Of a DNA stretch of 64,000 nt, positions 2,337 through 23,617 are shown piece by piece. Position 1 is the first letter of the stretch, and each line of letters starts with the position of its first letter. A program made the position numbers and the translations under genes. The DNA lies in assembly GCA_963741945.1 (NCBI GenBank), contig CAVUKA010000001.1, forward strand, positions 1,216,001 to 1,280,000, read 5' to 3'. The stretch comes from an uncultured Gemmatimonadales bacterium. Its GTDB lineage: Bacteria > Gemmatimonadota > Gemmatimonadetes > Longimicrobiales > RSA9. The notes under the pieces were generated by a model, which saw only the letters and a list, made by a program, of their open reading frames with translations, had not been told where the DNA came from and ran no database searches.

Positions 2337-2594
2337 CTACGCCCCGGCGACCCACTCACCCGAGTCCGAGTCGACGCCCAGGGCCAGCTCGTTGTCCCGC
2401 TGCTCCCTGCGCACACGAACGCCGTCCACCGCGTCGGCCATGGCGTTCAGAAAATGCCGGACCTCCGCCGAATGGCGACAGCAATCAGGCACGCTCCGCT
2501 CGACGCAGTCCATGCACGAGCTACGCAGCGCGCGGCTGATGTTCTGCAGCTCCTCAATGGAGAGCCGCCCCGGATCCATGTGGATCTTGATCAT
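2337..2594 (-). CDS. Small Cys-containing hypothetical protein (85 aa)
   Basis: Strong RBS GGAAGGAGG before ATG 2594; GC3-rich codons; CxxC...CC cluster; lies just downstream of citF. Confidence 0.55.
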   Translation of the reverse strand: MIKIHMDPGRLSIEELQNISRALRSSCMDCVERSVPDCCRHSAEVRHFLNAMADAVDGVRVRREQRDNELALGVDSDSGEWVAGA

Positions 2595-2650: not shown

Positions 2651-4264
2651 CTACTCGCGATTCGCCACCTGGAAGACCGTGTCCAGCACGGTCCCGTCCA
2701 CCCATTTCACGATGGCTACCGGCCGGTCGGTGACCCGCGGCGGCGCCGGCGCGCCGCCAATCATCCGGTCCACCTCGGCCTTGATCTCGGGCAGCGGCCG
2801 TATGGGAAGGCCGGAGCCGGCCGTGGCCCGGATCAGGTCCTCCCGCTTCGGGTTGATGGCGATGCCACGTTCCGTCACCACGACGTCGATGAGCTCGCCC
2901 GGGCCGGTGAGCGTGGTCACCCGATCCACCAGCACCGGAATGCGATCGCGGAACGCCGGCACGGCCAGGATGGTGCACCCGCTGAACAGGCAATTCTGCC
3001 AGCCACCGATCCCGTGGAGCAGCATGCCGTCCGAGTGGGTGACCACGTTGGCGTTGAAGTCCACGTCCACTTCTGTGGCGCCCAGCACCACGGCGTCCAC
3101 CATGGAGGCGAAGTTCCCCTTCCCATGGTAGTTGTAGGAGGTGAACGGCGATGTGGCGACGTGGCGCGCATCGCTCCCGATGGACTGCACGCCCGCCAGG
3201 TCGAACGTCTGGCCGTCCAGGATGTAGTCGGTGAGCCCCTCCCGCAGCAGGTCCACCAGGTACTTCGTCGAGCCGCCCCGGACGAACCGGGCCTTCACGC
3301 CCGCCTCCTTCATCAGCTCCTTCAGATAGCCCACGAAGGCCAGGGCGATTCCGCCCGCGCCCGCCTGGAAGCTGAAGCCGTCGCGCATGATCCCGGCTTC
3401 CTTGAGGAAGCGGGCCACGTACTCGGCAATGAGCAGCCGGTCCGGGCTCTTCGTGATCTCGGTGGTGCCGGACACGATCTTCGACGGGTCGCCCACGGAG
3501 TCCACCACCACGACGTGGTCGACGTTGTTGCCCTGGATCTGCCAGGGGATGCACGGGAACGGCACGACGTTGTCCGTCACCACGATGACGTGGTCGGCGT
3601 ACATGGAGTCGGCCAGGGCGAAGCCCAGGGAGCCGCACGCGGACGGCCCGTGCGAGCCATCCGCGTTGCCGAACGGGTCCGCCGTGGGGGCGGCGATCAC
3701 CGCGATGTCCACGTGGACTTCCCCGTCCTGGATGGCCTGCCAGCGGCCGCCGTGGGAACGGAGCACGCCCAGCCCCGCCATCCGGCCGCGCGACGTGTAG
3801 TCGCCCAGCGGCCCGTTCATGCTCCCCTCGATGTGGTGCACCACGCCCCGATCCATGAGATCCACCACCGGCGCCTGCACGGGGAACGACGCGCTCGGGA
3901 ACCAGCGCAGCCCGCTGACCCCGATTTCCGCCGCGGCCTGGAGCGCCGCGACCGCCACCCGGTCACCGTTCCGGAAGTGGTGGTGCGTGGAAATCGTCAT
4001 CCCATCCCGGAGTCCGCACGCTTCCAGCGCCGCGCGCAGGCTCGGAACGCGCTTGTCCCCGTTCGCCGGATAGTCGCTGGACGAGCGGATCGGCGGCCCG
4101 GCCTTGCGCCCCTCCGGTACGCGTGCACCCACGCCCGCGTACGCCACCTGCGACTCCCCGTTCACCACCAGCGGCACCCGCCGACCGGCCGCGTTCTCCA
4201 CCAGCTCCGCCCACGCCGGGCCCTCCAGCCAGGGCGCTGCCGGTACCTTCGTGATCACACTCAC
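2651..4264 (-). CDS. citF: Citrate lyase alpha subunit / citrate CoA-transferase-like
   Basis: GLRDGMTISTHHHFRNGD, RSHGGR, ACGSLGFA, FSFQAGAGG, LGATEVDVDFNANV, IDVVVTERGIAINP; GTG start overlaps the upstream TGA (GTGA). Confidence 0.9.
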   Translation of the reverse strand: MSVITKVPAAPWLEGPAWAELVENAAGRRVPLVVNGESQVAYAGVGARVPEGRKAGPPIRSSSDYPANGDKRVPSLRAALEACGLRDGMTISTHHHFRNGDRVAVAALQAAAEIGVSGLRWFPSASFPVQAPVVDLMDRGVVHHIEGSMNGPLGDYTSRGRMAGLGVLRSHGGRWQAIQDGEVHVDIAVIAAPTADPFGNADGSHGPSACGSLGFALADSMYADHVIVVTDNVVPFPCIPWQIQGNNVDHVVVVDSVGDPSKIVSGTTEITKSPDRLLIAEYVARFLKEAGIMRDGFSFQAGAGGIALAFVGYLKELMKEAGVKARFVRGGSTKYLVDLLREGLTDYILDGQTFDLAGVQSIGSDARHVATSPFTSYNYHGKGNFASMVDAVVLGATEVDVDFNANVVTHSDGMLLHGIGGWQNCLFSGCTILAVPAFRDRIPVLVDRVTTLTGPGELIDVVVTERGIAINPKREDLIRATAGSGLPIRPLPEIKAEVDRMIGGAPAPPRVTDRPVAIVKWVDGTVLDTVFQVANRE

Positions 4265-5613
4265 GTGCCACCCCCGTCCGAGCCGGTCGAGGCTGGCGAC
4301 GCCGTGACCCCGCCCGCGTCCACACCGCTCCCGTTCACCAGTCCCATCTCCCTCGCCCGCTCCACCAGCCGCCTCGCCCGCAGCACCACCGGCGGATCGA
4401 TCATCTTGCTGCCCAGGCTCACCACACCCAGCCCGCGCGCTTCCGCTGCCTCGAACGCCGCCACGATCTTCAGCGCTCTCTCCAGTTCCGCGGCCGTCGG
4501 CGCGAAGCCCGCGTGGATCACCCGGATCTGGCGCGGATGGACGCACCCCATCCCGATGAAGCCCATGGCGTGCGACGCCCGGGCCCACTCGAGCAGCCCC
4601 TCCACGTCCGCCACATCACCGTAGACCGAGTCGATGGCCTGCACGCCGGCCGCCCGCGCCGCGTTCGCCAGCCGCTCCCGCGCCCACAGCGTCTCGGCCC
4701 CCTGCTTCGTCTTGGCCACGCCCATGTCGGCGGTGTAGTCCTCCAGCCCGATGGTCAGCGCCGCTACCATTCCGGACGCGCGCGCAATGGCGAACGCGTT
4801 CTCGATCCCGAGCGCCGACTCCAGGATCGGCATGAGCCAGACCGGCCGCTCGTCGTGCGACGGCAGCGCCGCCGACATCCGGATGGCCGCGATCCGGTCG
4901 GCGACTTCCACCACCTGCGCCGCCTCCTCCACCTTGGGGATCAGCACCAGGTTCGGGAGCTCGGGCACGATGGCATCGAGGTCCTCCAGCCCCAGCGGCA
5001 GCTGGTTGATCCGCACCATCCGCTCGGCCGGGCCGAAGTCCACGCAGCGGAGGGCGTTCCGCACCAGAAGCCTCGCCGCCGCCTTCGCGTCCCGATGGAC
5101 GGAGTCCTCGAGGTCCAGGATCACGCCATCCGGACCGTGGAGCCCCGCGTTCAGCATGAACTTGGGCTCGTTCCCCGGCAGGTAGAGACGCGACCGGCGG
5201 AGCCGGTCCTTCGCCGTGCGACTGCCACGCGTGGCCGGGGCGGCGCCGTCGGCGCACGGGATCGCCGCCGCGGCGTCGTTCGCCACCAGCCCGGCTGCGC
5301 GGGCGGCGGCCTCGACGCGGGCCGCAATGACCCACGGCACCGCACCCTTGTCGTTCACCGACACGCGGGCGGCTGCCACGCCGAGCAGCGCAAGGGTGTC
5401 GAGGACCGTGGCGCGGATGGCGTCGCCGAAAAGCGACTCCACCCTCGACGTCAGTGACAGCTCGATCCCATCACCGCCCACCTCCACCGCGACGTGCAGG
5501 TCGGAGCGGACGTCATCGCCCGCTCGACCCGCCTCACCCCGGGGCGTGGCGGCCGCGACCGCCGTTGCGCCGCCTCCCTCTCCCGATGGTGTCGCGCCCG
5601 CCTGATCGCTCAT
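4261..5613 (-). CDS. citE: Fusion of CitD-like acyl-carrier (gamma) domain and CitE-like citryl-CoA lyase (beta) domain
   Basis: N-terminal SDLHV...IELSLTSRVESLFGDAIRATV...VNDKGA...AARVEAA is CitD-like. C-terminal RRSRLYLPGN, VILDLEDSV, VRIN, LIPKVE, ILESALG, GLEDY, GCVHPRQI, KMIDPP is HpcH/CitE-like. Confidence 0.85.
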   Translation of the reverse strand: MSDQAGATPSGEGGGATAVAAATPRGEAGRAGDDVRSDLHVAVEVGGDGIELSLTSRVESLFGDAIRATVLDTLALLGVAAARVSVNDKGAVPWVIAARVEAAARAAGLVANDAAAAIPCADGAAPATRGSRTAKDRLRRSRLYLPGNEPKFMLNAGLHGPDGVILDLEDSVHRDAKAAARLLVRNALRCVDFGPAERMVRINQLPLGLEDLDAIVPELPNLVLIPKVEEAAQVVEVADRIAAIRMSAALPSHDERPVWLMPILESALGIENAFAIARASGMVAALTIGLEDYTADMGVAKTKQGAETLWARERLANAARAAGVQAIDSVYGDVADVEGLLEWARASHAMGFIGMGCVHPRQIRVIHAGFAPTAAELERALKIVAAFEAAEARGLGVVSLGSKMIDPPVVLRARRLVERAREMGLVNGSGVDAGGVTASPASTGSDGGGT

Positions 5614-6824
5614 CCCGACCGCCCGCCCGCGGCCACGGGCGAGGCCAGCGCCGCGAGGATCGCGTCCGTCACTTCCGTGGTGCTGTCCGCGCCCTGCGCG
5701 ATGGCGTCCGGTCCGCCGGAGATCCGCATCATGTCATAGCTGCGCACTTTCCCATCCTGCACCACGGCCGCCACGGCGGTGCGCACCTGCTCGGCCTTGC
5801 CGGTCTCGCCCACGTGGTCCAGGAGCATCGCCGCGCTCAGGATCATGGCGATCGGGTTCACGATGGGCGGGTCGAGGCTCTCGTATTTCGGAGCCGAGCC
5901 GTGCGTGGGCTCGAAGACCGCTACCTCGTCCCCGATGTTCCCGGAGCAGGCGAAGCCGAGACCGCCGACCAGCCCGGCGAAACCGTCGCTCACGATGTCG
6001 CCGAACATGTTCCCGGCCACGATCACCCCGTAGTCCTCGGGGTTCTTCGTCAGCCACATCATCTGGGCATCGATGTTCGTGGACCAGAGTTGGATGTCGG
6101 GGAAGTCCTCGTGCGCCTTCTTCGCTTCCTCCTCCATCATGCCGCTGGTCTCGCGCAGCACGTTCGGCTTCTCGCACACCGTCACGCTCTCGTAGCCATG
6201 CTTCAGCGCATACTCGAACGCCGCCCTCGTGATGCGGGCGCACGCGCGGCGGGTGAAGATGCGAGTCGAGATCGCCAGGTCGTGCGAGGGCGTATCGGCG
6301 AAGCGGTCGAACTTCGGGTGCGTGCCCAGCGCATCCCGCACCGCCTTCGGCGGGTTCGTCCACTCCACGCCCGCGTACAGACCTTCCGTGTTCTGCCGGA
6401 AGATCACCGCGTCCACCACCGGCTCGTCCATGCCGCCATCCATGCCCCGCCGGACGAAGTTCAGCGGGTTGCCCGGGAACGACCGGCAGGGGCGGATGCA
6501 GAGGTCGAGGTCGAAGCGCTGACGCAGCCCCACGATCGGGCTGAAGTACACGTAGCCCTGGTCCTTCAGCTCTCGCTTCAGCTCCCGCGCCGCCGCCGTC
6601 TTCGGCTTCGACGTGATGGCGCCGAACAGGCCGAGCTTGTGCTCCGCCAGCAACTCCACCGTCCGCTCCGGCAGCGCGTTCCCCTCGTTGACCCAGAACT
6701 CCCATCCGATGTCCGCTTGGATGTATTCCGCGTCGAAACCCACCGCTTCCAGAACGCGCAGCGCTTCCGGCAGGACCACTTTGCCGATGCCGTCGCCCGG
6801 CATCGTCACGACCGTGTGCTTCAT
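5610..6824 (-). CDS. Beta-decarboxylating dehydrogenase (ICDH/IPMDH family), most like homoisocitrate dehydrogenase
   Basis: PGDGIGKVV, LFGAITS, YFSPIVGLRQRFDL, FRQNTEGLY, KPNVL, NMFGDIVSD, FEPTHGSAP, NPIAMILS. Confidence 0.85.
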   Translation of the reverse strand: MKHTVVTMPGDGIGKVVLPEALRVLEAVGFDAEYIQADIGWEFWVNEGNALPERTVELLAEHKLGLFGAITSKPKTAAARELKRELKDQGYVYFSPIVGLRQRFDLDLCIRPCRSFPGNPLNFVRRGMDGGMDEPVVDAVIFRQNTEGLYAGVEWTNPPKAVRDALGTHPKFDRFADTPSHDLAISTRIFTRRACARITRAAFEYALKHGYESVTVCEKPNVLRETSGMMEEEAKKAHEDFPDIQLWSTNIDAQMMWLTKNPEDYGVIVAGNMFGDIVSDGFAGLVGGLGFACSGNIGDEVAVFEPTHGSAPKYESLDPPIVNPIAMILSAAMLLDHVGETGKAEQVRTAVAAVVQDGKVRSYDMMRISGGPDAIAQGADSTTEVTDAILAALASPVAAGGRSG

Positions 6825-6852: not shown

Positions 6853-8802
6853 TCAAGCGTGAACGGTTATCCCCAGCGTCGCCCGTACCTTCGCCTCCGC
6901 CCCCCCGGCCACCACCAGGCTCTGCGGCACTCGCCCGAGCGCGGGAAAGCGGTACGTCTCTTCCCGCCACTCGATGGTGCCCCGGCGGAAATTCACCATG
7001 ATCTCCTCGCCCGGGATGATCGTGGGCTCACCCGCGGCCACCTGTGCCGCGAGCGCCTTCTCCACCGCGTGCACCAGCCCCGGGCATTCGACGCAGATGA
7101 ACCCGTTGTTGAACGCGTTCCGCTGGTACGTCTGCGACAGGCTCTCGGCGATCACCAGCGCGATCCCCTTGGCCTGCAGCGCCGTGGCCGCCTGCTCCCG
7201 GCTGGAGCCCGTGCCGAAGTTGCGCGTGCCCACCAGGATGTCGCCCGCGGCCGTGCGCCCCGCGAACTCGGGGTCGTAGTTGGCCATGACCACGGCCGCC
7301 ATCTCGGACGGCGAACGGTCCCGGTACGTGTGCTCCTTGCCGTAGATGCCGTCCGTATTCAGGTTCTCCTGCGGCACGAACACGAGCCGCCCCGTGACCT
7401 GCGCGGGGAAGCCGGGGAGGATCTCGACCGAGTCGTCGGCATCATCCAGGCGATCGAGGGCGCGGAAATCGTACGGCGGAACCCCGGCCGCCACGCGCCC
7501 GTCCTTGATGCGCCCGGCCAGCGCCGAGGCCGCCACCACGGCCGGACTGGCCAGGTAGACGCGCGCATCGCGGGAGCCCATGCGCCCCTTGAAGTTGCGG
7601 TTCGTCGCCGAGATCCCGACTTCCCCGTCCTGCAGCAGCCCCTCACCCAGCCCGATGCACGGGCCGCAGCCGGGCGGCAGCACTCTGGCGCCGGCATCCA
7701 GCAGCGCTCCCCACGCACCGCTCGCCTCCGCCTTCTCCTGGATCTCCCGGCTCGCCGCAGCCACGTAGAACGACACCCGGGGCGACACACGCTGCCCCCG
7801 GACCACCTCCGCGGCCGCTTCCAGGTCCTCCAGCCTGCCGTTCACACACGACAGGAGGTAGGCCCTGTCGATCTCGATCCCCTCCCCTTCCACCTCCCCC
7901 ACCGGGCGCCCCGTCTGCACCGTGTCGGGCCCGGTCAGGAACGGGCTCACCTTCCCCACGTCCACGATGATGCGGCCCACGTAGCGCGCATCCGAATCGG
8001 GCCGCGGCGGGGCAGCGCTCCAGGCGAAGAGCTGCGCGTCCGTGATCCTGTGGTGGTCGGCGGCCTCCAGCCTCGCCTTCCGCTCCTGCAGGAACTGGAT
8101 CGTGCGCGCGTCCACGGGGAACCACCCGGCCAGCGCGCCCCACTCCGTGGTCATGTTGGCGATGGTCATGCGGGCGGCCATGTCCAGCGAGGCCACGCCC
8201 GGCCCGGCGAACTCCACCACCCGGTTCAGCACTTCGCCGCTCGAGTAGAGCGAGCAGAGCGTGAGGATCACGTCCTTCCCGCTGACCCCCGGGCGCAGCT
8301 GTCCTTCCAGCACCACCTGGACGGTTCCCGGCACCTGCCACCAGAACTCGCCCGTGGCCCAGATCACCGCCGCATCCGTCCGCACGACGGGCGTGCCCAG
8401 GGCCCCGACAGCGCCATAGGTGTTGGCGTGCGAATCGGAGGCGACCACCAGCGTGCCCGGGAGCGCATACCCGCGCTCGATGATGATCTGGTGACCGATC
8501 CCCGTCCCCGCGGGGTGGAAATCCAGCCCGTGCTCCCGCGCGAACGTCCGGATCCGGGTGTACTTCTCGAGGTTCTCGGGCGAGCGGTTCTGGATCTCGT
8601 GGTCCAGCACGATCACCGGCTGCCGCGGGTCGTGGATGCGATCCACGCCGATGGCCCTGAACTTCGACATCACCGCCGCGGTGTTGTCGTGGGTCAATAT
8701 GTGCCGCGGCCGGAGGGACACCATGTCCCCCGGCCGGAGCGGTCGATCGGGCCCATCGACCATGTGGGCCCGTGCGATCTTCTCCACCATCGTCGCGCCC
8801 AT
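6853..8802 (-). CDS. lysF: Single-chain homoaconitase-like hydratase (large and swivel domains fused)
   Basis: THDNT, LDHEIQN, GIGHQ, SDSHANTYG, TPVVRTDAA.IWATG, SCVNGR and GCGPCIG (three Fe-S Cys), SATNRNFKGRMG, NTDGIY, NFGTGSSREQA; RBS GAGGAGG before ATG 8802. Confidence 0.85.
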   Translation of the reverse strand: MGATMVEKIARAHMVDGPDRPLRPGDMVSLRPRHILTHDNTAAVMSKFRAIGVDRIHDPRQPVIVLDHEIQNRSPENLEKYTRIRTFAREHGLDFHPAGTGIGHQIIIERGYALPGTLVVASDSHANTYGAVGALGTPVVRTDAAVIWATGEFWWQVPGTVQVVLEGQLRPGVSGKDVILTLCSLYSSGEVLNRVVEFAGPGVASLDMAARMTIANMTTEWGALAGWFPVDARTIQFLQERKARLEAADHHRITDAQLFAWSAAPPRPDSDARYVGRIIVDVGKVSPFLTGPDTVQTGRPVGEVEGEGIEIDRAYLLSCVNGRLEDLEAAAEVVRGQRVSPRVSFYVAAASREIQEKAEASGAWGALLDAGARVLPPGCGPCIGLGEGLLQDGEVGISATNRNFKGRMGSRDARVYLASPAVVAASALAGRIKDGRVAAGVPPYDFRALDRLDDADDSVEILPGFPAQVTGRLVFVPQENLNTDGIYGKEHTYRDRSPSEMAAVVMANYDPEFAGRTAAGDILVGTRNFGTGSSREQAATALQAKGIALVIAESLSQTYQRNAFNNGFICVECPGLVHAVEKALAAQVAAGEPTIIPGEEIMVNFRRGTIEWREETYRFPALGRVPQSLVVAGGAEAKVRATLGITVHA

Positions 8803-8885
8803 CGATCCTCCTCGCCTCGACCCCTTCTCCGCCTGGGTCGCGGCTTGCTGGGATTGCCGAGCGGGCCCGCGCGGCCCGCCGGCGC

Positions 8886-10286
8886 CTACCGGTCCGCCCG
8901 TGTCAGCCGCATGAGCGCCGCTGCGCTCTCCTGCCGCTCCAGCGTCCACACGGCCTCTATCAGGCGGCGCTGGGCGTCCCGCGTCATCACGGGCTCCGCC
9001 AGCGCCGCGAACTTCTCCTCCACCTCACCATCCGTCAGCGGGTTCCGCGGATCGCCCTTCGGGTAGTCCAACTGCTTCGTCAGCTCGCGGCCATCCGTGG
9101 TCCGGACGGTCACATGCACCCGCTGCAGCGCCGGGAACACCGCCTCGATCTCCGCGTCCCCCACCACTTCCACCTTCTCCAGCTGCGCCCGGACCTCCGG
9201 GTCCATGATGCGCGCTTCCTCGAACTGCCGCGGCGTCACCTGCCGGTCCACGATGGCCGCCGCGATCACGTAGGGCAGGCTGTGGTCCGCCGTCTCCTTC
9301 GTGCGCGGATCGTACTTGCTCGCGTCCGCCAGGATGTCCGCCGCCCGGGCCAGTGACCGGATCCGGACCTTCTCGATCTCAGCCGGCTTCAGGTCGTGCT
9401 CGAGCACCACGTCCAGCACGGCCGAGATCGGCGCGTGCGTCAGCGCTTCCGTCGGGAACGCCTTCATCCCGCACCGCTCGATCCGCCAACTCTCGCCGAG
9501 CCCCTCCGTCAGCACCTCCAGCTTCCACTCGGGGCCCATCACGTGGACCAGCCCCTCCTTCCCTTCCACCACCCCCTCCGGACCCGTGTACCCACGCTCC
9601 GCCAGCAGCGCAGCCATCACCCCCGCCTGAGTCGCCATCGGGTCCGCCGTGTTCTTCATCATCGACAGCTTCCCCGCCACCACCCCGCCCACCGTGGCGT
9701 GGCTCGATCCGCTGATCCCGATCGCGTGCCGGATCTGCTCCGCGTCCAGCCCCGCCAGCCGCCCCGCCACGACCGGCGACACGAACGCCGTCAGCGTGGC
9801 ATGGTGCCAGCCCCGCTCCCGGATCCCCGGGAACGCCGCTTCGCAGAAGCGCATCTCCAGCTCGTGCCCCAGCACGATCCCCAGGATGACGTCCCGGCCC
9901 CCCAGCCCCTGCCGCTCCGCCATCGCCAGCGCCGCCGGGATCAGGTCCGACGGATGCGACGGGTCCTGCTGCCAGTAGATGTCGTTGTAGTCCATCACCC
10001 GGACCATCAGCGCGTTCGCCAGCGACGCCGACACCACGTCCATGCGACGCCCGCTCCCCACCACCGTGGCCGGCCCCTCCCCCGCCACTTCGTCCAGAAC
10101 CTGGAGCGCGATCTTCACGTCGTGCTGACCGTACCCGCCCAGCGCGCAGCCCAGCGAGTCCAGCAGGTAGCGCTTCGCCTCGTGAACGGCCCGCGGGCCC
10201 AGCTCGTCGAACGAGAGATCGGCTGCCCAGCGGGCGAGCTGCGCGCTCACGGTCCCGACGGGTGGGGAAGAAACGGTCGTCGCCAT
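8886..10286 (-). CDS. MmgE/PrpD-family dehydratase
   Basis: LLDSLGCALGG, RVMDYND, SHPSDLIP, RGWHH, KLSMMK, EGKEG, KAFPTE, KETADHSLPY, PKGDPRNP. Confidence 0.9.
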   Translation of the reverse strand: MATTVSSPPVGTVSAQLARWAADLSFDELGPRAVHEAKRYLLDSLGCALGGYGQHDVKIALQVLDEVAGEGPATVVGSGRRMDVVSASLANALMVRVMDYNDIYWQQDPSHPSDLIPAALAMAERQGLGGRDVILGIVLGHELEMRFCEAAFPGIRERGWHHATLTAFVSPVVAGRLAGLDAEQIRHAIGISGSSHATVGGVVAGKLSMMKNTADPMATQAGVMAALLAERGYTGPEGVVEGKEGLVHVMGPEWKLEVLTEGLGESWRIERCGMKAFPTEALTHAPISAVLDVVLEHDLKPAEIEKVRIRSLARAADILADASKYDPRTKETADHSLPYVIAAAIVDRQVTPRQFEEARIMDPEVRAQLEKVEVVGDAEIEAVFPALQRVHVTVRTTDGRELTKQLDYPKGDPRNPLTDGEVEEKFAALAEPVMTRDAQRRLIEAVWTLERQESAAALMRLTRADR

Positions 10287-10457: not shown

Positions 10458-11024
10458 CTAGCGAAACGGCAGGTACGCCATGAAGTCGGCGTGGTGCACG
10501 ATGATCGCCTCGGTGCTCCGCTTGACGAGGTCGCCCTCGCCGGCGTGCGCGGCGATGATGTGGCACACGGCATCCGGCACGCCCGCCTCCAGGGCGAGGG
10601 CGACGCCGGTGAAGGGGTGGCGGAGCGCCCGGCCGCGAGCGCTCTGCCGGGTGTCGTCGCCTGCCTTCTCGTACTCCAGCAGCTTGCCGACATCGGCCAG
10701 GATCGCGCCGGCGATGACCGTGTCCCGGTCGATTTCGAGCGCGTGGCCCATGAAATCCGTCATCGCTCGCGCGCCATCGCGGGCGATGTGGACCACGCAC
10801 CGCTTGTGCTGCATGAACGTGGCGCGGCAGTCCTTTACCAGGAGGGTGAACGGGATCCGCTCCAGGTCGCCCGCCGTGAGCGGGCTCCGCTCCAGCGCCA
10901 GCTCCCACGTGCGTGCGACGCGCTCCCTCAGCTCGCGATCCTCGATCCACGCCAGCTCCGGCCACAGCCGCTCCACGTCCGACCGCAGCGCTTCGCCCGC
11001 CGATCCCGTCATCGTGTCCGTCAT
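10458..11024 (-). CDS. HD-superfamily protein with variant motif (LADVGK)
   Basis: QHKRCV...GAILADVGKLLEY...RHPFTG...HIIAAHAGEG...IIVHHADF follows the HD-domain motif layout. Confidence 0.8.
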   Translation of the reverse strand: MTDTMTGSAGEALRSDVERLWPELAWIEDRELRERVARTWELALERSPLTAGDLERIPFTLLVKDCRATFMQHKRCVVHIARDGARAMTDFMGHALEIDRDTVIAGAILADVGKLLEYEKAGDDTRQSARGRALRHPFTGVALALEAGVPDAVCHIIAAHAGEGDLVKRSTEAIIVHHADFMAYLPFR

Positions 11025-12129: not shown

Positions 12130-13234
12130 GCGGACCTGGTACCAAATTCCAGATAGTCCTCATCTGCTATCCTCCTGCCCCGCCACCACCGGCACCTTGC
12201 CGCCATGCCACGCACCCCTCGCCCGTACCTGCCCGGCGCAGTCTTCCACGTCACCGCGCGCACCCAGGGCCACATGCCCTGGTTTACGCCGGATGTCCGC
12301 GGCGCCATGGTGGCTCGCCTGACCTCATCCCTCGCCTCCTCGGACGGTCGTCTGCTCGCATACGCCGTCATGCCGAACCACCTGCATCTCGTTCTGCAGC
12401 AGGGGGATTGGCCACTCGGCCGTGTGCTTCAGCCAGCCCTCCGCAAGATCGCGCTACTGGTCCAGAGCCGGCATGGCGTCGAGGGTCACGTGTTCGAGCG
12501 ACGGTTCCGCGCCTCCCCCTGCCTCGACCCCGACTATGCTCGCAATGCGATCGTGTACACCAACCTCAACCCCGTGCGAGCGGGGCTGACGCCGGACGCC
12601 GTGGAGTATCCGTGGACGTCCCACCAGCGCTACGCGGACGCTACACCGGCGAGCTCGACAGCCGTCGACTGCCTCGCCGGACTGCGCCTGTTCGCGGCGT
12701 CGATTCGCGCCGGACCGCCGGCACTGCGGCGGAGCTACCTCCGGTACGTCGCATGGCGCCTCGAGTGCGACGCCATCCGGGGTGCGACCGGAGCTTCGGA
12801 CCACCACCGGCCACTTCCGCCTCTTCCGCCCCTGGTCCACGCGGCCGGGCGCTGGTCCGAGGCCTACGCGCCCCTGTTCTGCTCGCCTGCCCCGGATCCG
12901 GTCCGGCCAGCGCCACGCCCCGACCTCCGCGACATCGCGCGCCGGGTGCTGGCCTCCGCGCCCGAAACCGTGGATCTCGCGCGAGTGCGCAGCCGCAGCA
13001 AGGCAACCAATGTGGTCCGGATCCGTCGGGCCATGATCATCCGCATGGATGCCGCAGGGCACAGCAGGGGAGCCATCGCACACTATGCGAGGGTGAGCGT
13101 GCAGTGCGTCTCACACGTGTTGGTTACGGAGAGGACGCGACGAGGGCGGGATCTTCACAAGGAGTACCCGCAAGCATGACGGAGACCAGCGCGGGAGGCC
13201 CCTTCTAAGAATTTGGATTCGGTACCAGGTCCGC
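12130..13234. mobile_element. Putative element made of a RAYT-type transposase gene between terminal inverted repeats
   Basis: GCGGACCTGGTACC at 12130-12143 and its exact reverse complement GGTACCAGGTCCGC at 13221-13234 enclose only the transposase gene; no target-site duplication seen. Confidence 0.65.
12205..13179 (+). CDS. Y1/HUH tyrosine transposase (RAYT-like) with C-terminal HTH extension
   Basis: FHVTAR, AYAVMPNHLHL (HUH), GHVFERRF, VYTNLNPVRAGL (catalytic Tyr), YPWTS; basic helical C-terminal tail. Confidence 0.88.
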   Translation: MPRTPRPYLPGAVFHVTARTQGHMPWFTPDVRGAMVARLTSSLASSDGRLLAYAVMPNHLHLVLQQGDWPLGRVLQPALRKIALLVQSRHGVEGHVFERRFRASPCLDPDYARNAIVYTNLNPVRAGLTPDAVEYPWTSHQRYADATPASSTAVDCLAGLRLFAASIRAGPPALRRSYLRYVAWRLECDAIRGATGASDHHRPLPPLPPLVHAAGRWSEAYAPLFCSPAPDPVRPAPRPDLRDIARRVLASAPETVDLARVRSRSKATNVVRIRRAMIIRMDAAGHSRGAIAHYARVSVQCVSHVLVTERTRRGRDLHKEYPQA

Positions 13235-13299: not shown

Positions 13300-14715
13300 C
13301 TACACCTTCTTCAGCTCGCTCACCAGCGCTGTCAGCACCTTCTTCGCGTCGCCGAACAGCATCCGGTTGTTGTCCTTGTAGAACAGCGGGTTGTCCGTCC
13401 CCGCGAACCCCGGATTCAGGCTCCGCTTGATGACGATGGTGTTCTTCGCGAAATCCGCGTTGATGATCGGCATCCCGTACAGCGGGCTGTCCTTGTTGGT
13501 CCGCGCGTCCGGGTTCACCACGTCGTTGGCGCCCACGATCAGCACCACGTCCGTGCGCTCCAGCTCGCTGTTGATGTCGTCCGCCTCGTACAGCTGGTCG
13601 TACGGCACATTGGCCTCCGCCAGCAGCACGTTCATGTGACCGGGCATGCGCCCCGCCACCGGGTGGATCGCGAACTTCACGCTCACACCCTTCTCGGCGA
13701 GCAGGTCCGACAGCTCCCTCGCCTGGTGCTGCGCCTGCGCCACGGCCAGCCCGTAGCCCGGGACGATCACCACGCTCTCCGAGTAGGACATGAGGACGGC
13801 GGTGTCCTCGGCGTTGATCTCCTTCACGATCTTGGGCCCACCCTCGCCCGCCGCCACGGCCGCCGTCTGCGAGCCGAAAGCGCTGAACAGCACGTTCGCC
13901 AGCGACCGGTTCATCGCGCGGCACATGATGGCGCTCAGGATGATCCCGGACGCACCCACCAGCGCGCCGGCGATGATCAGCACGTTGTTGTTCAGCACGA
14001 ACCCCGTGGCGGACGCCGCGAGGCCCGAATACGAGTTGAGCAGCGCCACCACGACCGGCATGTCCGCGCCCCCGATGGGCATCACGAACATGATGCCGAA
14101 GATCAGCGACAGCGCGGCCAGTGCGACGAACCACCCGGCGCCCGCGCCCGGCACCGCCGTCAGGTAGCCACCGATGCCCAGCGTGGTCAGGAACACCAGC
14201 AGGTTGACGAAATTGCCGCCCGGGTAGGTGAGCGCCTTCTCGAAGTGACCTTCGAGCTTCGCCCACGCCAGGAAGCTCCCCGACAGGGTCACGGCGCCGA
14301 TGAGCACCGAAAGCACGATGGTCAGGGCGACGGTGATCGTCGCGTCCGCCGTCGACGGCTTCAGGAACTCCACGGCCGCGACCAGCGCCGACGCGCCACC
14401 GCCGAAGCCGTTGAAGATGGCCACCATCTGCGGCATGGCCGTCATCTTGACCCATTTGGCCAGGAACCAGCCAATGCCGGAACCGACCGCGAGGCCGACC
14501 ACGATCCACAGCCAGTCCAGCCCGCCCTGCAGCACCTGTCCATCGACCATGGTGGCGACGATGGCCAGGAGCATACCCAGGGCGCCCAGCAGGTTGCCTC
14601 GCCGCGCCGTCTTCGGGGAGCTGAGCTGCTTCAGCCCCAGGATGAACAGGACTGACGCGACCAGGTACGCAATCTTGATGAAGACCGGCAGCGGTCCTCC
14701 AATTTGTGCCTCCAC
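13300..14715 (-). CDS. pntB: NAD(P) transhydrogenase subunit beta
   Basis: KMTAMPQMVA.FNGFGG, PIGGADMPVV.ALLNSYSG, AMNRS, VPGYGLAVAQAQ, AIHPVAGRMPGHMNVLLAEA, GANDVVNP. Confidence 0.97.
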   Translation of the reverse strand: MEAQIGGPLPVFIKIAYLVASVLFILGLKQLSSPKTARRGNLLGALGMLLAIVATMVDGQVLQGGLDWLWIVVGLAVGSGIGWFLAKWVKMTAMPQMVAIFNGFGGGASALVAAVEFLKPSTADATITVALTIVLSVLIGAVTLSGSFLAWAKLEGHFEKALTYPGGNFVNLLVFLTTLGIGGYLTAVPGAGAGWFVALAALSLIFGIMFVMPIGGADMPVVVALLNSYSGLAASATGFVLNNNVLIIAGALVGASGIILSAIMCRAMNRSLANVLFSAFGSQTAAVAAGEGGPKIVKEINAEDTAVLMSYSESVVIVPGYGLAVAQAQHQARELSDLLAEKGVSVKFAIHPVAGRMPGHMNVLLAEANVPYDQLYEADDINSELERTDVVLIVGANDVVNPDARTNKDSPLYGMPIINADFAKNTIVIKRSLNPGFAGTDNPLFYKDNNRMLFGDAKKVLTALVSELKKV

Positions 14716-14716
14716 G

Positions 14717-15019
14717 TCAGGCCTCCCGTTCTTCCTTCTTCTTGAACATCTGGAGCATGCGATCGGTCACCACGAAGCCGCCGACCACGTTGATCGTCGC
14801 CACGATGAGCGCGATCACGCCCAGGATCGTCGAAACCGTCCCCTCCGTGAGGGCCGAAAGCACCAGGATCGCGCCCACGATGGTGATCCCCGAGATCGCG
14901 TTGGACCCGGACATCAGCGGCGTGTGGAGGATCGTCGGCACTTTCGTGATGACCTCGAAGCCCACGAAGATCGCGAGCACGAGAATGTAGATCGAAAACA
15001 GCAGATCGTAGCCTTGCAT
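14717..15019 (-). CDS. pntA: NAD(P) transhydrogenase subunit alpha, membrane part
   Basis: KVPTILHTPLMSGSNAISG, NVVGGFVVTDRMLQMF; ATG 15019 with upstream GAGGAGGGGAAGG. Confidence 0.95.
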   Translation of the reverse strand: MQGYDLLFSIYILVLAIFVGFEVITKVPTILHTPLMSGSNAISGITIVGAILVLSALTEGTVSTILGVIALIVATINVVGGFVVTDRMLQMFKKKEEREA

Positions 15020-15032
15020 ATCCTTCCCCTCC

Positions 15033-16181
15033 TCAGGCGCCCGCGCCAATGGCGGCGCGCGTCCGTTCGTGCACGACCGACCCGTCGTGGGTGACGCACG
15101 ACTCCCGCGTGATCTCGTCCTCGAAGTCCAGCTTGAGCGCCTTCGTCTCCTCGTCGTAGAGGTGCTTCAGCAGCTCGTGGATGTTCTTCGAGTACATCTG
15201 GCTGGAGTTCTTCGGCAGCTCGCTCGCGGCGTCGATGATGCCGACCACCTTGACGCCGTTCTCCACCACCGTCTCGCCGGCCCGCGTGAGCTCGCAGTTG
15301 CCGCCCGACTCCGCGGCCAGGTCCACGATCACCGCGCCCGGACGCATCGCTTCCACCATGTCCCGCGTGATCAGCACCGGCGCCTTCCGCCCCGGCACCT
15401 GCGCCGTGGTGATCACCACGTCGCTCTCCGCGCAGATCTTGTGGAGCAGCTCGTGCTCCTTCTTCTGCTGGTCCTCCGTCACTTCCTTGGCGTAGCCGCC
15501 CTTCGTCTCCGCCTCTTCCAGCGTGATCCCCACGAACTGCGCGCCCAGGCTCTCCACCTGCTCGGCCGCGGCCGGGCGGATGTCGAAGCCCTTCACCCGC
15601 GCCCCCAGCCGCTTCGCCGTCGCGATCGCCTGGAGCCCGGCCACACCCGCGCCGATCACCAGCACCTTCGCCGGCGGGATCGTCCCCGCCGCCGTGGTCA
15701 GCATGGGGAAGAACACGTCCACGTCCAGCGCGCCGCGAAGCGCCGCGATGTAGCCCGCGGACGTCGCCTGGCTGGAGAGCGCGTCCATGCGCTGCGCCAC
15801 CGTGATCCGGGGCACCAGCTCCATGCTGAAGCTCGTCACTCTCGCCGCCGCCAGACCGTTCACCAGCTCGGGCGAGACCAGTGGCTGGAGGAAGGCGATC
15901 AGCGCGCCTCCGGCCTTGAGCTTCGCCACCTCGTCGACCGCTCCGGCTCCCACCGTCGGCGGCGCCACCTTCACCACAACGTCGGCAGCAAAAACGGCAG
16001 CGTCATCCGCCACCGTCGCGCCCGCATCGGCATATGCTGAGTCGGCAAAACCGGCCTCGGTCCCCGCCCCCTTCTCCACCACCACGTCCATCCCCGAGCC
16101 CACCAGCTTCGCCACTGTGTCCGGGACCAGGGCGACCCGACGCTCCCCCCGGGCCACCTCCCGTGGCACTCCTACCTTCAT
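15033..16181 (-). CDS. pntA: NAD(P) transhydrogenase subunit alpha, soluble domain I
   Basis: GERRVALVP, PRITVAQRMDALSSQ, FFPMLTTAAGT, GAGVAGLQAIATA, ITTAQVPG, DLAAESGGNC. Confidence 0.97.
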   Translation of the reverse strand: MKVGVPREVARGERRVALVPDTVAKLVGSGMDVVVEKGAGTEAGFADSAYADAGATVADDAAVFAADVVVKVAPPTVGAGAVDEVAKLKAGGALIAFLQPLVSPELVNGLAAARVTSFSMELVPRITVAQRMDALSSQATSAGYIAALRGALDVDVFFPMLTTAAGTIPPAKVLVIGAGVAGLQAIATAKRLGARVKGFDIRPAAAEQVESLGAQFVGITLEEAETKGGYAKEVTEDQQKKEHELLHKICAESDVVITTAQVPGRKAPVLITRDMVEAMRPGAVIVDLAAESGGNCELTRAGETVVENGVKVVGIIDAASELPKNSSQMYSKNIHELLKHLYDEETKALKLDFEDEITRESCVTHDGSVVHERTRAAIGAGA

Positions 16182-20843: not shown

Positions 20844-20856
20844 CTCGGCTGAAGCG

Positions 20857-20889
20857 AACGTCCGCAAGACTTCCGGTCTTGCGGACGTT
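20857..20889 (+). terminator. Perfect 14-bp hairpin after tRNA-Pro (terminator or processing signal)
   Basis: AACGTCCGCAAGAC-TTCCG-GTCTTGCGGACGTT; only a weak T-rich tail. Confidence 0.65.
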
Positions 20890-21062
20890 GCTGTGTCCGC
20901 ACCCGGGGCGAGCACGCCTGGCGCGTCCCGGCCGGATCGGCGAGCGGGTCACCGGGGACATGGGCGGCACCACTGGGCCTGTGCCCGAAAATTGCAACCC
21001 CGGGAGCGCCGAACGGCGAGGCAGCGAAACCGTTGCAGGATCCACGGAGCGGAGCAGAGCAC

Positions 21063-22541
21063 ATGGAGGAGGCACCCCGGGATCGGTGTCCGATGGGCAT
21101 TTCGGGACTCGACGAAGTCCTGCATGGCGGTCTGATCCGGCAGCGCGCGTACCTCGTCCGGGGCGGTCCCGGGACGGGGAAGACCACGCTGGGGCTTCAC
21201 TTCCTCCAGACGGGGGTGGCGCAGGGAGAGACGGTCCTGCTGATCACGCTCGAGTCCTCCGAGGCGCAGCTCCACGCGGATGCGGAAGCGCAGGGGCTGG
21301 ACGTGTCGGGCATAACGTTCCTGGACCTCAGTCCCGGTCGTGAATTCTTCGCGGAGAACCAGAGCTACGACCTCTTCTCTCCGGCGGACGTGGAGCGGGA
21401 CCCGACCACGCGGCGGATCATCGAGACCATCGAGCGGGAGCGGCCGGCGCGGGTGTTCGTCGACGCCATCACGGCCATGGGCTACCTCGCCCCGGACGCG
21501 TTCCAGTTCCGCAAGCAGGTGCTTTCCTTTCTCCGCTACCTGGTGGAGCACGGGGCGACGGTCCTCATGAGCTCGGAGCCCACCGGCAGCGTCCCCGACG
21601 ACGACCTCCGGTTCATGGCCGACGGGATCATCGAGGTCGAGGTCTCGCCGGATCACGGCACCCTGCGGCGCTCGCTGGGCGTGACGAAGCTCCGGGGATC
21701 GGACTTCGCCGGCGGGCGGCATGCCTTGCGGCTGACGGATCACGGCGTCGTCGTCTTCCCGCGGCTGGTTCCGGGGCGGTACGAGCGGGCGTTCGACCCG
21801 GAGATCGTGCCATCGGGGATCGCGGAGCTGGACGCGATGATGGGCGGCGGGATCGAGCGGGGAACCATCACGATCGTGAGCGGTCCGAGCGGTGTGGGGA
21901 AGACCACGCTGGGGACGCAGTTCCTGGCCGAAGCCGCCACGCGCGGCGAGCGGTCGACGCTCTACACGTTCGAGGAGCAGGAGGAGACGCTCCTGCACCG
22001 CTGCAGCGCCATCGGGATGCCCGTGCGTGACATGGTCGACGCGGGGATGTTGTCGGTGGTGAGCGTGGAGCCGCTGCGCTTCTCTCCCGCCGAGTTCGCC
22101 CTGCTCGTCCGGGAGGAGGTCGAGGAGCGCGGCGCCAGGCTGATCATGATCGACGGGATCTCGGGTTACCGCCTCACGCTTGCCGGCGACGACCTGCTGA
22201 CCCATCTCCACGCCCTCGGCCGCTACCTGAAGAACATGGGCGCGACGGTGCTCCTCATCAACGAGGTTGAGGGGATCACGGGCGAGTTCCACGCCACCGA
22301 CATCGGGGCCAGCTATCTGAGTGACAACCTGATCTTCCTCCGCTACCTGGAGATCGAGGGTGAGCTGCGCAAGGCGATCGGGGTGCTGAAGAAACGGCTG
22401 GGTGATTTCGGCAAGACGCTGCGTGAGATGACCATCACCGATTGCGGGATCGTGGTGGGCGAGCCGCTCACCGGCCTGCGGGGAATCCTCACGGGCACGC
22501 CGGAATGGTCGCATCCCCACCGCTCACCGGGTGAGGCGTGA
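21063..22541 (+). CDS. KaiC-like double RecA-domain ATPase
   Basis: Two Walker A motifs (GGPGTGKTT, GPSGVGKTT), GISGLD/SGIAELD, TLES/TFEE, VTKLRGS/VLKKR, SYLSDNL. Confidence 0.9.
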   Translation: MEEAPRDRCPMGISGLDEVLHGGLIRQRAYLVRGGPGTGKTTLGLHFLQTGVAQGETVLLITLESSEAQLHADAEAQGLDVSGITFLDLSPGREFFAENQSYDLFSPADVERDPTTRRIIETIERERPARVFVDAITAMGYLAPDAFQFRKQVLSFLRYLVEHGATVLMSSEPTGSVPDDDLRFMADGIIEVEVSPDHGTLRRSLGVTKLRGSDFAGGRHALRLTDHGVVVFPRLVPGRYERAFDPEIVPSGIAELDAMMGGGIERGTITIVSGPSGVGKTTLGTQFLAEAATRGERSTLYTFEEQEETLLHRCSAIGMPVRDMVDAGMLSVVSVEPLRFSPAEFALLVREEVEERGARLIMIDGISGYRLTLAGDDLLTHLHALGRYLKNMGATVLLINEVEGITGEFHATDIGASYLSDNLIFLRYLEIEGELRKAIGVLKKRLGDFGKTLREMTITDCGIVVGEPLTGLRGILTGTPEWSHPHRSPGEA

Positions 22542-23617
22542 GTCGAATCCTGCTCCACATGCTCCAGAAGCGGAATCAGCGGCTGCTGGAGGAAGAGCTG
22601 GCCGGGGACCACGAGGTGGCGATCGCGGCCGGCCCGGACGACATCGAGGAGGCGTTCGACCTGCTCGTCGTGGACGGCCGCGCCCTGGACCGGTCATGGG
22701 ACCGGATCCGGGACCGCAAGGACCGCGAGCAGCCGCTGTTCCTGCCCGTGCTTCTGGTCACGTCGCGACCGGACGTGAAGATGACCACCCGCCACCTGTG
22801 GCGGAGCGTGGACGAGCTCATCCTCACCCCCATCGAGAGGCCCGAGCTGCGTGCCCGCCTCCACATCCTCCTTCGCGCCCGGAGCCTCTCGCTGAAGCTG
22901 CAGGAGCGGGCGGCCGCCGCCGAGCAGGCCGCGCGCACCCGCGACGAGGTCATGGCCATGGTCTCCCACGACCTTGGAAACCCGCTCAACCTCGTGCTGT
23001 CGAACGCTTCACTCCTCCTGGAGATCGGTCCGGACCTGGAGCCGGGCCAGCTCAAGCAGGTCGAGGGCATTCATCGGGCAGCACGGCGGATGAGCCGCCT
23101 GACACAGGACCTGCTGGACGTCTCGGGCCTCGAGTCCGGCCACCTGCAGGTCCGCCGCCGTCCGATCTCTCCCGTGACGCTGATCCGGAACGCGCAGGCG
23201 CAGCACGAGCAGGCTGCCGAGGCGCAGTCCATCGCCCTGCTGTGCGAGGCCCCGGACGGGCTGCCCGACGTGAACGCGGATCCGGACCGGATGGACCAGC
23301 TGTTCGGCAACCTGATCGGCAACGCCCTGAAGTTCTCGCCCGCTCACACCGAGATCGCCATCGCGGCGGCCGCGGCCGGCCACCGCATCAGATTCTCCGT
23401 CACCGACACCGGACCCGGGATCGCCGCTTCGGACCGGCCCCACGTTTTCGATCGGTTCTGGCGCGCCGACGGCTCGGATCGAGCCGGGGCAGGACTCGGG
23501 CTGGCCATCGCGAAAGGGATCGTCGACGCCCACGGCGGCGACATCGGGGTGGAGAGCGCTCCGGGCGGGGGCGCCTGCTTCTGGTTCGAGCTCCCGATCG
23601 AGCCGATGAACGGGTGA
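22538..23617 (+). CDS. Histidine kinase with an atypical N-terminal receiver-like domain
   Basis: H-box VSHDLGNPL, N-box NLIGNALKF, DTGPGI, FDRF, GAGLGLAI; N-terminal LLVVD...LLVTS...VDELILTP; GTGA overlap with the KaiC-like gene. Confidence 0.9.
   Translation: MSRILLHMLQKRNQRLLEEELAGDHEVAIAAGPDDIEEAFDLLVVDGRALDRSWDRIRDRKDREQPLFLPVLLVTSRPDVKMTTRHLWRSVDELILTPIERPELRARLHILLRARSLSLKLQERAAAAEQAARTRDEVMAMVSHDLGNPLNLVLSNASLLLEIGPDLEPGQLKQVEGIHRAARRMSRLTQDLLDVSGLESGHLQVRRRPISPVTLIRNAQAQHEQAAEAQSIALLCEAPDGLPDVNADPDRMDQLFGNLIGNALKFSPAHTEIAIAAAAAGHRIRFSVTDTGPGIAASDRPHVFDRFWRADGSDRAGAGLGLAIAKGIVDAHGGDIGVESAPGGGACFWFELPIEPMNG

Follow-up and report, generated by a model that had tools for sequence, protein, structure and literature searches.

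Arginine at the cofactor-serine position of a conserved CitD-CitE fusion, a lyase component that probably works with free coenzyme A

Introduction

Citrate lyase CitDEF (EC 4.1.3.6), found in E. coli (citCDEFXG), Klebsiella and Enterococcus, is an ATP-independent citrate (pro-3S)-lyase that works with CitC, CitG and CitX, and in its textbook form it depends on a covalent arm resembling coenzyme A (CoA) and on these three helper proteins. Here we describe a gene in which CitD is fused to CitE, together with its citF partner, in a stretch of DNA from an uncultured Gemmatimonadales bacterium (NCBI GenBank assembly GCA_963741945.1, contig CAVUKA010000001.1, positions 1,216,001 to 1,280,000); the whole 64,000-nucleotide stretch is referred to as the window, and coordinates are positions within it. 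According to the textbook scheme, CitF exchanges the acetyl group of the carrier for a citryl group, and the citryl-carrier is then cleaved by CitE (PMC10798043; here and below, excerpts of the cited papers are the source). The genes described here likewise encode homologues of CitD, CitE and CitF, together and in the same order, and the fusion keeps the CitD core residues. Unlike CitDEF, CitD is fused to CitE, an arginine takes the place of the attachment serine, citC, citG and citX are absent, the operon is a different one, and CitE and CitF fall in a clade of their own, their site residues altered.

The same two-gene architecture is found in Ignavibacterium album, in which a CitD-CitE fusion (IALB_1147) and CitF (IALB_1146) were described in 2012 as an ATP-independent citrate lyase with a possible role in the reverse tricarboxylic acid (TCA) cycle; the excerpts of that report mention neither the serine nor missing helper genes, and contain no assay (PMC3362086). 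The fusion is thus already known. For a serine-less CitD, for the operon described below or for a homocitrate lyase, no paper was found in a literature search covering few subscription journals and no supplements, and loss of the serine is not covered in the excerpts of PMC3534657, PMC9560492, PMC2996986, PMC6689899 and bioRxiv 10.1101/322404.

Two further systems are informative. Malonate decarboxylase MdcACDE (PDB 5VIT) has the same carrier fold; its carrier MdcC bridges subunits, binds the transferase MdcA through two helices, in a manner resembling the carrier-CitF docking modelled below, and bears its cofactor on Ser25, on the tip of the loop connecting antiparallel strands (PMC5534430). 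Unlike the fusion, MdcC keeps this serine and needs MdcB and MdcG, and the Mdc chemistry differs. The stand-alone CitE-like lyases (malyl-CoA lyase, CLYBL, Rv2498c and RipC) share the barrel of the CitE part but have neither a CitD domain nor a CitF partner; their identity is 29-36%.

Results

The fusion, its domains, its partner and the residues discussed are as follows:

4261..5613, minus strand: CitD-CitE fusion gene, 450 amino acids (aa) (open reading frame (ORF), family profiles, AlphaFold2 model)
5290..5541, minus strand: CitD/MdcC-fold carrier-like domain, aa 25-108, four strands and two helices (PF06857, AlphaFold2, Foldseek)
5506..5508, minus strand: Arg36 (CGC), at the cofactor-serine position (E. 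coli CitD Ser14, MdcC Ser25) (alignments)
5500..5505, minus strand: Ser37-Asp38, the ordinary [S/G]-D positions of CitD (alignments, ESMFold2)
4342..5205, minus strand: CitE-type acyl-CoA C-C lyase TIM barrel, aa 137-424 (profiles, Foldseek)
2651..4264, minus strand: citF, alpha subunit of a CoA/acyl carrier protein transferase (PF04223, TIGR01584, PDB 2hj0 and 1xr4)
2945-2947, minus strand: CitF Asp439, a predicted carrier-loop contact (numbered from the codon at 4261)

The frame of the fusion is intact, with zero internal stops. Pfam placed PF06857 (CitD/MdcC carrier) at aa 35-106, with 67.7 bits against a cut-off of 25.1, and PF03328 (CitE) at aa 140-360; among the NCBIfam profiles TIGR01608 (citD) scored 63.9 bits (cut-off 63.5), and TIGR01588 (citE) scored 258.8, below its equivalog cut-off of 443.4. 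The whole fusion was modelled by AlphaFold2 with a mean predicted local distance difference test score (pLDDT) of 85.9, and the carrier domain alone with 96.3. The top Foldseek match of the carrier domain was 5vit_C, from the malonate decarboxylase structure (E 9.7e-4, TM 0.62), a sequence search of the PDB for a CitD structure having returned chance matches only; for the CitE part, the top matches were malyl-CoA lyases and CLYBL.

Translation of the ORF bears out the motif that a first-pass annotation of this DNA had read as AGRAGDDV-R-S-D (codons 5500-5511): the residues are A28-G-R-A-G-D-D-V35-R36-S37-D38, with V35 at 5509-5511, R36 at 5506-5508, S37 at 5503-5505 and D38 at 5500-5502. E. 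coli CitD (NC_000913.3) has S14-G15-D16 here, of which S14 is presumably the cofactor attachment site, and S-[S/G]-D was found in 8/8 canonical CitD sequences (E. coli and 7 of 40 listed plasmid-collection matches; locus L143 is decayed). Pairwise MAFFT alignment, with the invariant Asp as anchor, aligned R36 with S14 and S37 with the S/G position. The same register, with R36 at the first serine, was obtained in three MAFFT modes using the eight canonical CitD and one MdcC, and again by hhalign profile-profile comparison, in which R36 fell on the serine and S37 on the S/G position with a probability of 99.55 and an ungapped motif. As the five alignments are concordant and have no gaps after the motif, an alignment artefact was ruled out. 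The MdcC of locus L096 (genome G210) has a serine at residue 25, followed by G-D. The loop after the conserved AG is 3 residues longer in the fusion than in canonical CitD, and in the AlphaFold2 models R36-S37 lie in the loop joining the first two strands. The serine found in canonical citrate lyase two residues before the invariant Asp is not present, Arg36 standing in its place, and the alignments with CitD and MdcC uphold the earlier claim that an arginine replaces the prosthetic-group serine.

A 94-aa protein, P0252, is apparently a stand-alone CitD and has K-T-D at the attachment site, which suggests that loss of the serine is independent of fusion; a search for short stand-alone relatives gave 11 matches, mostly cut-off fusions.

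The arginine is conserved well beyond this genome. Among the best 120 of 674 fused homologues scored, query included, R36 and D38 were each present in 120/120, while position 37 was Ser in 117 and Gly in 3. In the 80 closest genome loci the motif was RSD in 76 and RGD, KSD, KAD and RAD in one each; over these loci, which come from several phyla, the fusion is 58-69% identical and CitF 73-85%. The nearest named homologues are from Gemmatimonadota, and within this phylum 12/201 genomes carry the PF06857 domain, all 12 as RSD fusions. Of 401 genomes around one Bacteroidota metagenome-assembled genome (MAG), 33 carry the domain, all in frames of ~400 aa, and the 30 of these 33 matches that were read comprised 27 RSD, 2 KSD and 1 RAD. 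All 30 are therefore of the Arg/Lys type; the likeness noted for the I. album pair is one of architecture. Altogether, position 36 was basic in 122/122 genome-locus reads (one genome counted twice). A profile search of 50%-identity representatives gave 1205 matches, and of the best 150 of these 140 cover the site and 10 do not; the 140 have R in 131, K in 5, Q in 2, P in 2 and S in 0, counts that are no census, since the profile was made from Arg-type sequences and many matches are fragments. The presence of R36 in all 120 nearest homologues excludes an error of sequencing or assembly, and its conservation among homologues and genome loci likewise rules out a private mutation: the substitution is real and not a matter of chance. 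The Arg-type two-gene version is present in Gemmatimonadota, Acidobacteriota, Bacteroidota and other little-cultured phyla. A CitE tree, rooted at its midpoint without an outgroup, was built from 27 of the 117 Arg-type and 26 of the 63 Ser-type sequences; in it the two types form two clades, with a support of 0.999.

The absence of citC, citG and citX, noted in the first-pass annotation, holds genome-wide and not merely in the window. In this genome (96.73% complete, 8 contigs), hidden Markov model (HMM) searches did not find CitG, CitX, CitC or MdcG, and tblastn with the E. coli proteins also found no citC, citG or citX; on these searches, helper genes elsewhere in the genome were rejected. 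Neither PF01874 nor PF10620 was found, and the Mdc system (MdcC with Ser25, MdcB and MdcG) is not present. The genome has a single PF06857 match; a second, serine-type carrier acting in trans was accordingly ruled out.

The suggested check of whether such fusions co-occur with loss of citC, citG and citX gave the expected answer. Among 61 fusion carriers (the genomes of 50 of the 80 loci and 11 own-phylum matches) CitG was found in one and CitX in none, and CitC was above its cut-off in 0/62 with the present genome included; CitG was found in 0/32 Bacteroidota-sample genomes, giving 1/93 combined. Eleven weak TIGR00124 matches in relatives did not exceed 26.8 bits, where the cut-off is 262. 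The lone CitG match, in genome G210, was set aside as a loader of the fusion, because the operon around it is an mdc operon, which has an S-G-D MdcC of its own. That operon (L096, G210:C236:18160-21942), with a serine-type MdcC and MdcB, thus shares a genome with an Arg-type fusion. Serine-type carriers, for their part, accompany citG: in a control set of 401 genomes around an Actinomycetota-labelled MAG, 11 of which carry the PF06857 domain, CitG was present in 10/10 genomes with a serine-type CitD or MdcC. Similarly, citC, citX or citG lay nearby in 18/26 serine-type metagenome loci of at least 11 kb, versus 0/80 fusion loci; the serine-type loci were chosen by the serine-type pattern, and 79/80 are SSD by construction. 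By its carrier residue and its lack of helper genes, the fusion falls outside canonical citrate lyase; it probably works in a similar way with free CoA.

The partner gene, citF, starts with GTG at 4264, overlapping the stop of the fusion, or at 4258, and citF follows the fusion in 80/80 loci. Its product scored 468.9 with TIGR01584, below the equivalog cut-off of 501.45. ESMFold2 placed the carrier domain on CitF with a score of 0.68, the best of three controls scoring 0.00, with 100% contact agreement between runs and a partner pLDDT of 91; the mark applied was reached by 116/157 solved and 2/215 mismatched pairs, a calibration that holds roughly with the alignments used. In the model, the two helices of the carrier and its residues 36-37 face CitF residues 410-411, 439-441 and 500-509, in the CitF C-terminal domain. 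The idea that the CitD domain is kept as a scaffold thereby gains support from modelling. One of the predicted contacts, CitF Asp439, is D/E in 74/74 Arg-type versus G/S/A in 53/53 Ser-type sequences (no Bacteroidota CitF was complete enough to be included), and it is possible that an Arg36-Asp439 pair fills the space of the phosphoribosyl link.

Elsewhere in CitF, residues 421-423 (~2993-3001, minus strand) are W-Q-N in 74/74 Arg-type sequences, at a site that reads H-x-D in the serine type (H and D in 53/53). A remodelled pocket for the substrate may lie behind this change.

Since attachment site and loading enzymes are both missing, an enzyme of this kind would work most simply by carrying out the same two steps on free CoA esters, and we regard it as likely that the fusion and CitF form a lyase that passes free acyl-CoA between two active sites. 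CitF would transfer CoA to a tricarboxylate, the donor being acetyl-CoA or another acyl-CoA, and CitE would cleave the resulting (3S)-acyl-CoA to a 2-oxoacid and acetyl-CoA; with acetyl-CoA available from the cellular pool, no priming by CitC would be needed. The carrier-like domain would dock on CitF via its two helices and the Arg36-Ser37 loop, and could act as a tether holding CitE beside CitF. Canonical CitE and CitF reportedly accept acetyl-CoA and citryl-CoA in vitro. Tyr144 and Lys151 of the CitE part align with a Tyr and a Lys of CLYBL, other free-CoA lyases being without the Lys, and the pair was found in 117/117 Arg-type versus 0/63 Ser-type CitE sequences; in CLYBL we take this pair to bind the CoA phosphate. 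Free CoA esters are the substrates of the stand-alone CitE-like lyases (PMC3832036), and MdcDE decarboxylates free malonyl-CoA in vitro (PMC5534430). Overall, the earlier interpretation, a lyase that may use free acetyl-CoA/CoA with its CitD domain kept as a scaffold, is supported: the helper-gene co-occurrence agrees with it and the docking model favours the scaffold, free-CoA turnover itself being an inference.

Most of the serine-type CitE sequences of loci L163-L242 (54/63) have Gly at the position of Glu291, unlike E. coli CitE. As a guess, these are perhaps a distinct lyase subfamily, such as a citramalate lyase.

The fusion and citF are the last two genes of an operon whose other members are:

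5610..6824, minus strand: beta-decarboxylating dehydrogenase, its nearest solved relatives being homoisocitrate dehydrogenases (profiles, structure matches, alignment)
6853..8949, start likely ~8802, minus strand: fused aconitase-family hydratase with a fungal-type homoaconitase score (TIGR00139)
8886..10286, minus strand: MmgE/PrpD-family dehydratase (PF03972, PF19305)
10458..11024, minus strand: HD-fold protein with Ala-Asp for His-Asp, the first gene of the operon (profiles, alignment)

The order is HD-fold protein, PrpD-family, aconitase-family, dehydrogenase, citDE and citF, with overlapping stop and start codons (the dehydrogenase stop overlaps the fusion start in ATGA), and the full six-gene set is present in 58/65 loci with at least 7 kb upstream. 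The hydratase scored 664.4 bits with TIGR00139, against a cut-off of 529.9, and so qualifies as a homoaconitase. The best matches of the dehydrogenase were homoisocitrate dehydrogenases (HICDH), all below cut-off, and Val was found in 76/76 matched loci at the position of Arg85 in the Thermus enzyme, a residue that presumably sets isocitrate use in HICDH. The PrpD-family dehydratase scored below the PrpD equivalog cut-offs. In the HD-fold protein, 68-75% identical across 15 aligned relatives, the Asp is preceded by Ala (in one case Ile, in one Cys), and several other His are invariant; no informative solved relative was found for it, and the Atlas returned only unnamed HD clusters.

Another gene of the aconitase family, in which the small domain precedes the large, lies at G000:C4:172410-174326 (L147:3192-5597); it scored below every NCBIfam cut-off.

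An isomerisation split over two enzymes is known from the upper alpha-aminoadipate pathway (aconitase and the homoaconitase Lys4) and from the 2-methylcitrate cycle (PrpD and aconitase): fungal homoaconitase catalyses the homoaconitate-homoisocitrate half alone, and PrpD dehydrates (2S,3S)-methylcitrate, which aconitase cannot (PMC3556520). Unlike the alpha-aminoadipate pathway, no homocitrate synthase was found above cut-off in this genome (best TIGR02146 match 178.7 bits, cut-off 413.55), and the operon has a CitEF-type lyase and a PrpD-type dehydratase instead; lysine synthesis in this genome has lysA, also unlike that route. If the CitE-type lyase handles the (S) acid and PrpD dehydrates the acyl-CoA-derived arm, the gene set would be coherent for (S)-homocitrate. 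On the strength of these family assignments we lean towards homocitrate rather than citrate as the substrate of the operon, which would be linked via PrpD, homoaconitase and the dehydrogenase to 2-oxoadipate. A housekeeping TCA role is unlikely, because citrate synthases, AcnA and NADP-IDH are encoded separately. Together with lysA, a saccharopine dehydrogenase-family gene and the lack of a homocitrate synthase, these separate TCA enzymes lean towards a catabolic link from 2-oxoadipate, and the catabolic direction of flux is somewhat more likely.

In this substrate part, the alternative of an ordinary citrate-cleaving enzyme, likewise using free CoA but with neighbours that do not define its substrate, is rather unlikely. 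In its favour, both CitE and CitF are clear citrate-lyase homologues, and citrate fermentation or the reverse TCA cycle has been proposed for the I. album fusion (PMC3362086). The Bacteroidota-sample fusions (L107-L136) lie directly after prpD in 22/30 loci and have a dehydrogenase within 1.5 kb in 2/30, which leaves 28/30 without one and possibly indicates a different operon layout or substrate in that group. The citrate alternative is less easily reconciled with a hydratase that exceeds the homoaconitase cut-off, with a dehydrogenase that is closest to HICDH and in every matched locus has Val for the Thermus Arg85 (if that residue has the significance we assume), with the separately encoded citrate synthases, AcnA and NADP-IDH, or with the G-W-Q-N of this CitF in place of the canonical G-H-x-D.

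Discussion

Genes of this kind are routinely annotated as citrate lyase and interpreted as a possible step of the reverse TCA cycle. Were they to use free CoA, and possibly a different substrate, those pathway reconstructions would be altered; unbound CoA could also allow the route to export acetyl-CoA, something the textbook enzyme is unable to do. A conserved two-gene version with neither arm nor helpers would also be a natural test of the purpose of the arm, and a clear case of a carrier protein turned scaffold. Taking all the parts jointly, we tentatively put forward a widespread second lyase class, in which free or electrostatically held CoA would have replaced the covalent arm and the old carrier would serve as a clamp on CitF, with Arg36 beside Asp439; it would be a lyase of (S)-homocitrate and belong to a so far undescribed route between 2-oxoadipate and 2-oxoglutarate plus acetate or acetyl-CoA.

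Several observations weigh against the explanation given here, or against parts of it. The Arg type is a single clade, so that the correlation of the arginine with helper-gene loss reflects one evolutionary event and not 94 independent ones. The helper search in the Bacteroidota sample covered CitG alone, in 32 genomes, and completeness was shown for 12/62 genomes, those of the own phylum, at 93-98%. As an MdcA-MdcC complex has already been solved, the docking pass may stem from likeness to it, and because Asp439, Tyr144 and Lys151 are three of many columns that differ between the clades, they may reflect only shared descent. The operon includes an unexplained HD-fold protein, and the Bacteroidota layout, mostly prpD with no adjoining dehydrogenase, speaks against one common substrate. 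Finally, Ser37 is present in 118/121 loci and Ser56 in 121/121, so that a hydroxyl would be available to an unrelated loading enzyme.

This last point underlies an improbable alternative, according to which the domain has kept its carrier function: a covalent CoA-derived arm would sit on Ser37 or Ser56, attached by a loader unrelated to CitG and CitX, for example a phosphopantetheinyl transferase or the HD-fold protein of the operon. Besides the conservation of the two serines, this scenario would agree with the position of Ser37 in the AlphaFold2 models, in the loop that holds the canonical site, and with the HD-fold gene travelling with the operon in the 58 complete loci. Position 37, however, is Gly or Ala in three operons that are otherwise intact in their CitE motifs and citF frame (L021, L074 and L094), Gly in the three homologues counted above, and non-Ser in five of the representatives (best 150 of 1205: RAD 2, RGD 2, PQD 1). 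Canonical CitD also has S or G there, and Ser56 is likewise invariant in canonical CitD. Moreover, Ser37 falls inside the predicted CitF contact, and the fold is that of MdcC, unlike the four-helix fold of the carriers that phosphopantetheinyl transferases load. HD-fold proteins are, to our knowledge, hydrolases or oxygenases and not ligases. Being an ordinary S/G position that is Gly or Ala in intact relatives, Ser37 is unlikely to be a substitute attachment site, and as judged from these comparisons neither it nor Ser56 behaves as a site gained in exchange. The caveat in the first-pass annotation, that the adjacent serine could be used instead, is weakened by the Gly and Ala of these relatives and by the place of Ser37 in the modelled contact.

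It is very improbable that the Arg or Lys itself bears a novel covalent cofactor, such as an N-linked ribosyl or phosphoramidate arm. The residue sits at the attachment tip of the family and is basic in every genome-locus read and in 136/140 representatives; Arg, Lys, Gln and Pro interchange there, a pattern more in keeping with an electrostatic or structural role than with modification, and CitG, the maker of the ribosyl-CoA precursor, is absent. Least probable of all is that the carrier domain or the entire lyase is a functionless, decaying relic: the textbook enzyme would be inactive once it had lost its essential serine and every helper gene, but the frames are intact, fusion and CitF retain the identities given above over the 80 closest loci, the new motif is itself nearly invariant, and overlapping stop and start codons couple the genes.

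Other genes around the operon were also observed. An 85-aa ORF lies right after citF (2337-2594, minus strand) and has no Pfam or NCBIfam match; as it is present in only 2/91 other loci (L016 and L041), it is outside the core operon. Genes for an NAD(P) transhydrogenase (13300-16181, minus strand) precede the operon by ~2 kb, in the same orientation. A 324-aa ORF (12205-13179, plus strand) has no Pfam match at E 0.001; by eye, it resembles what we take to be REP-associated tyrosine transposases. Further along, at 20853-23614 on the plus strand, a KaiC-family double ATPase is followed by a histidine kinase.

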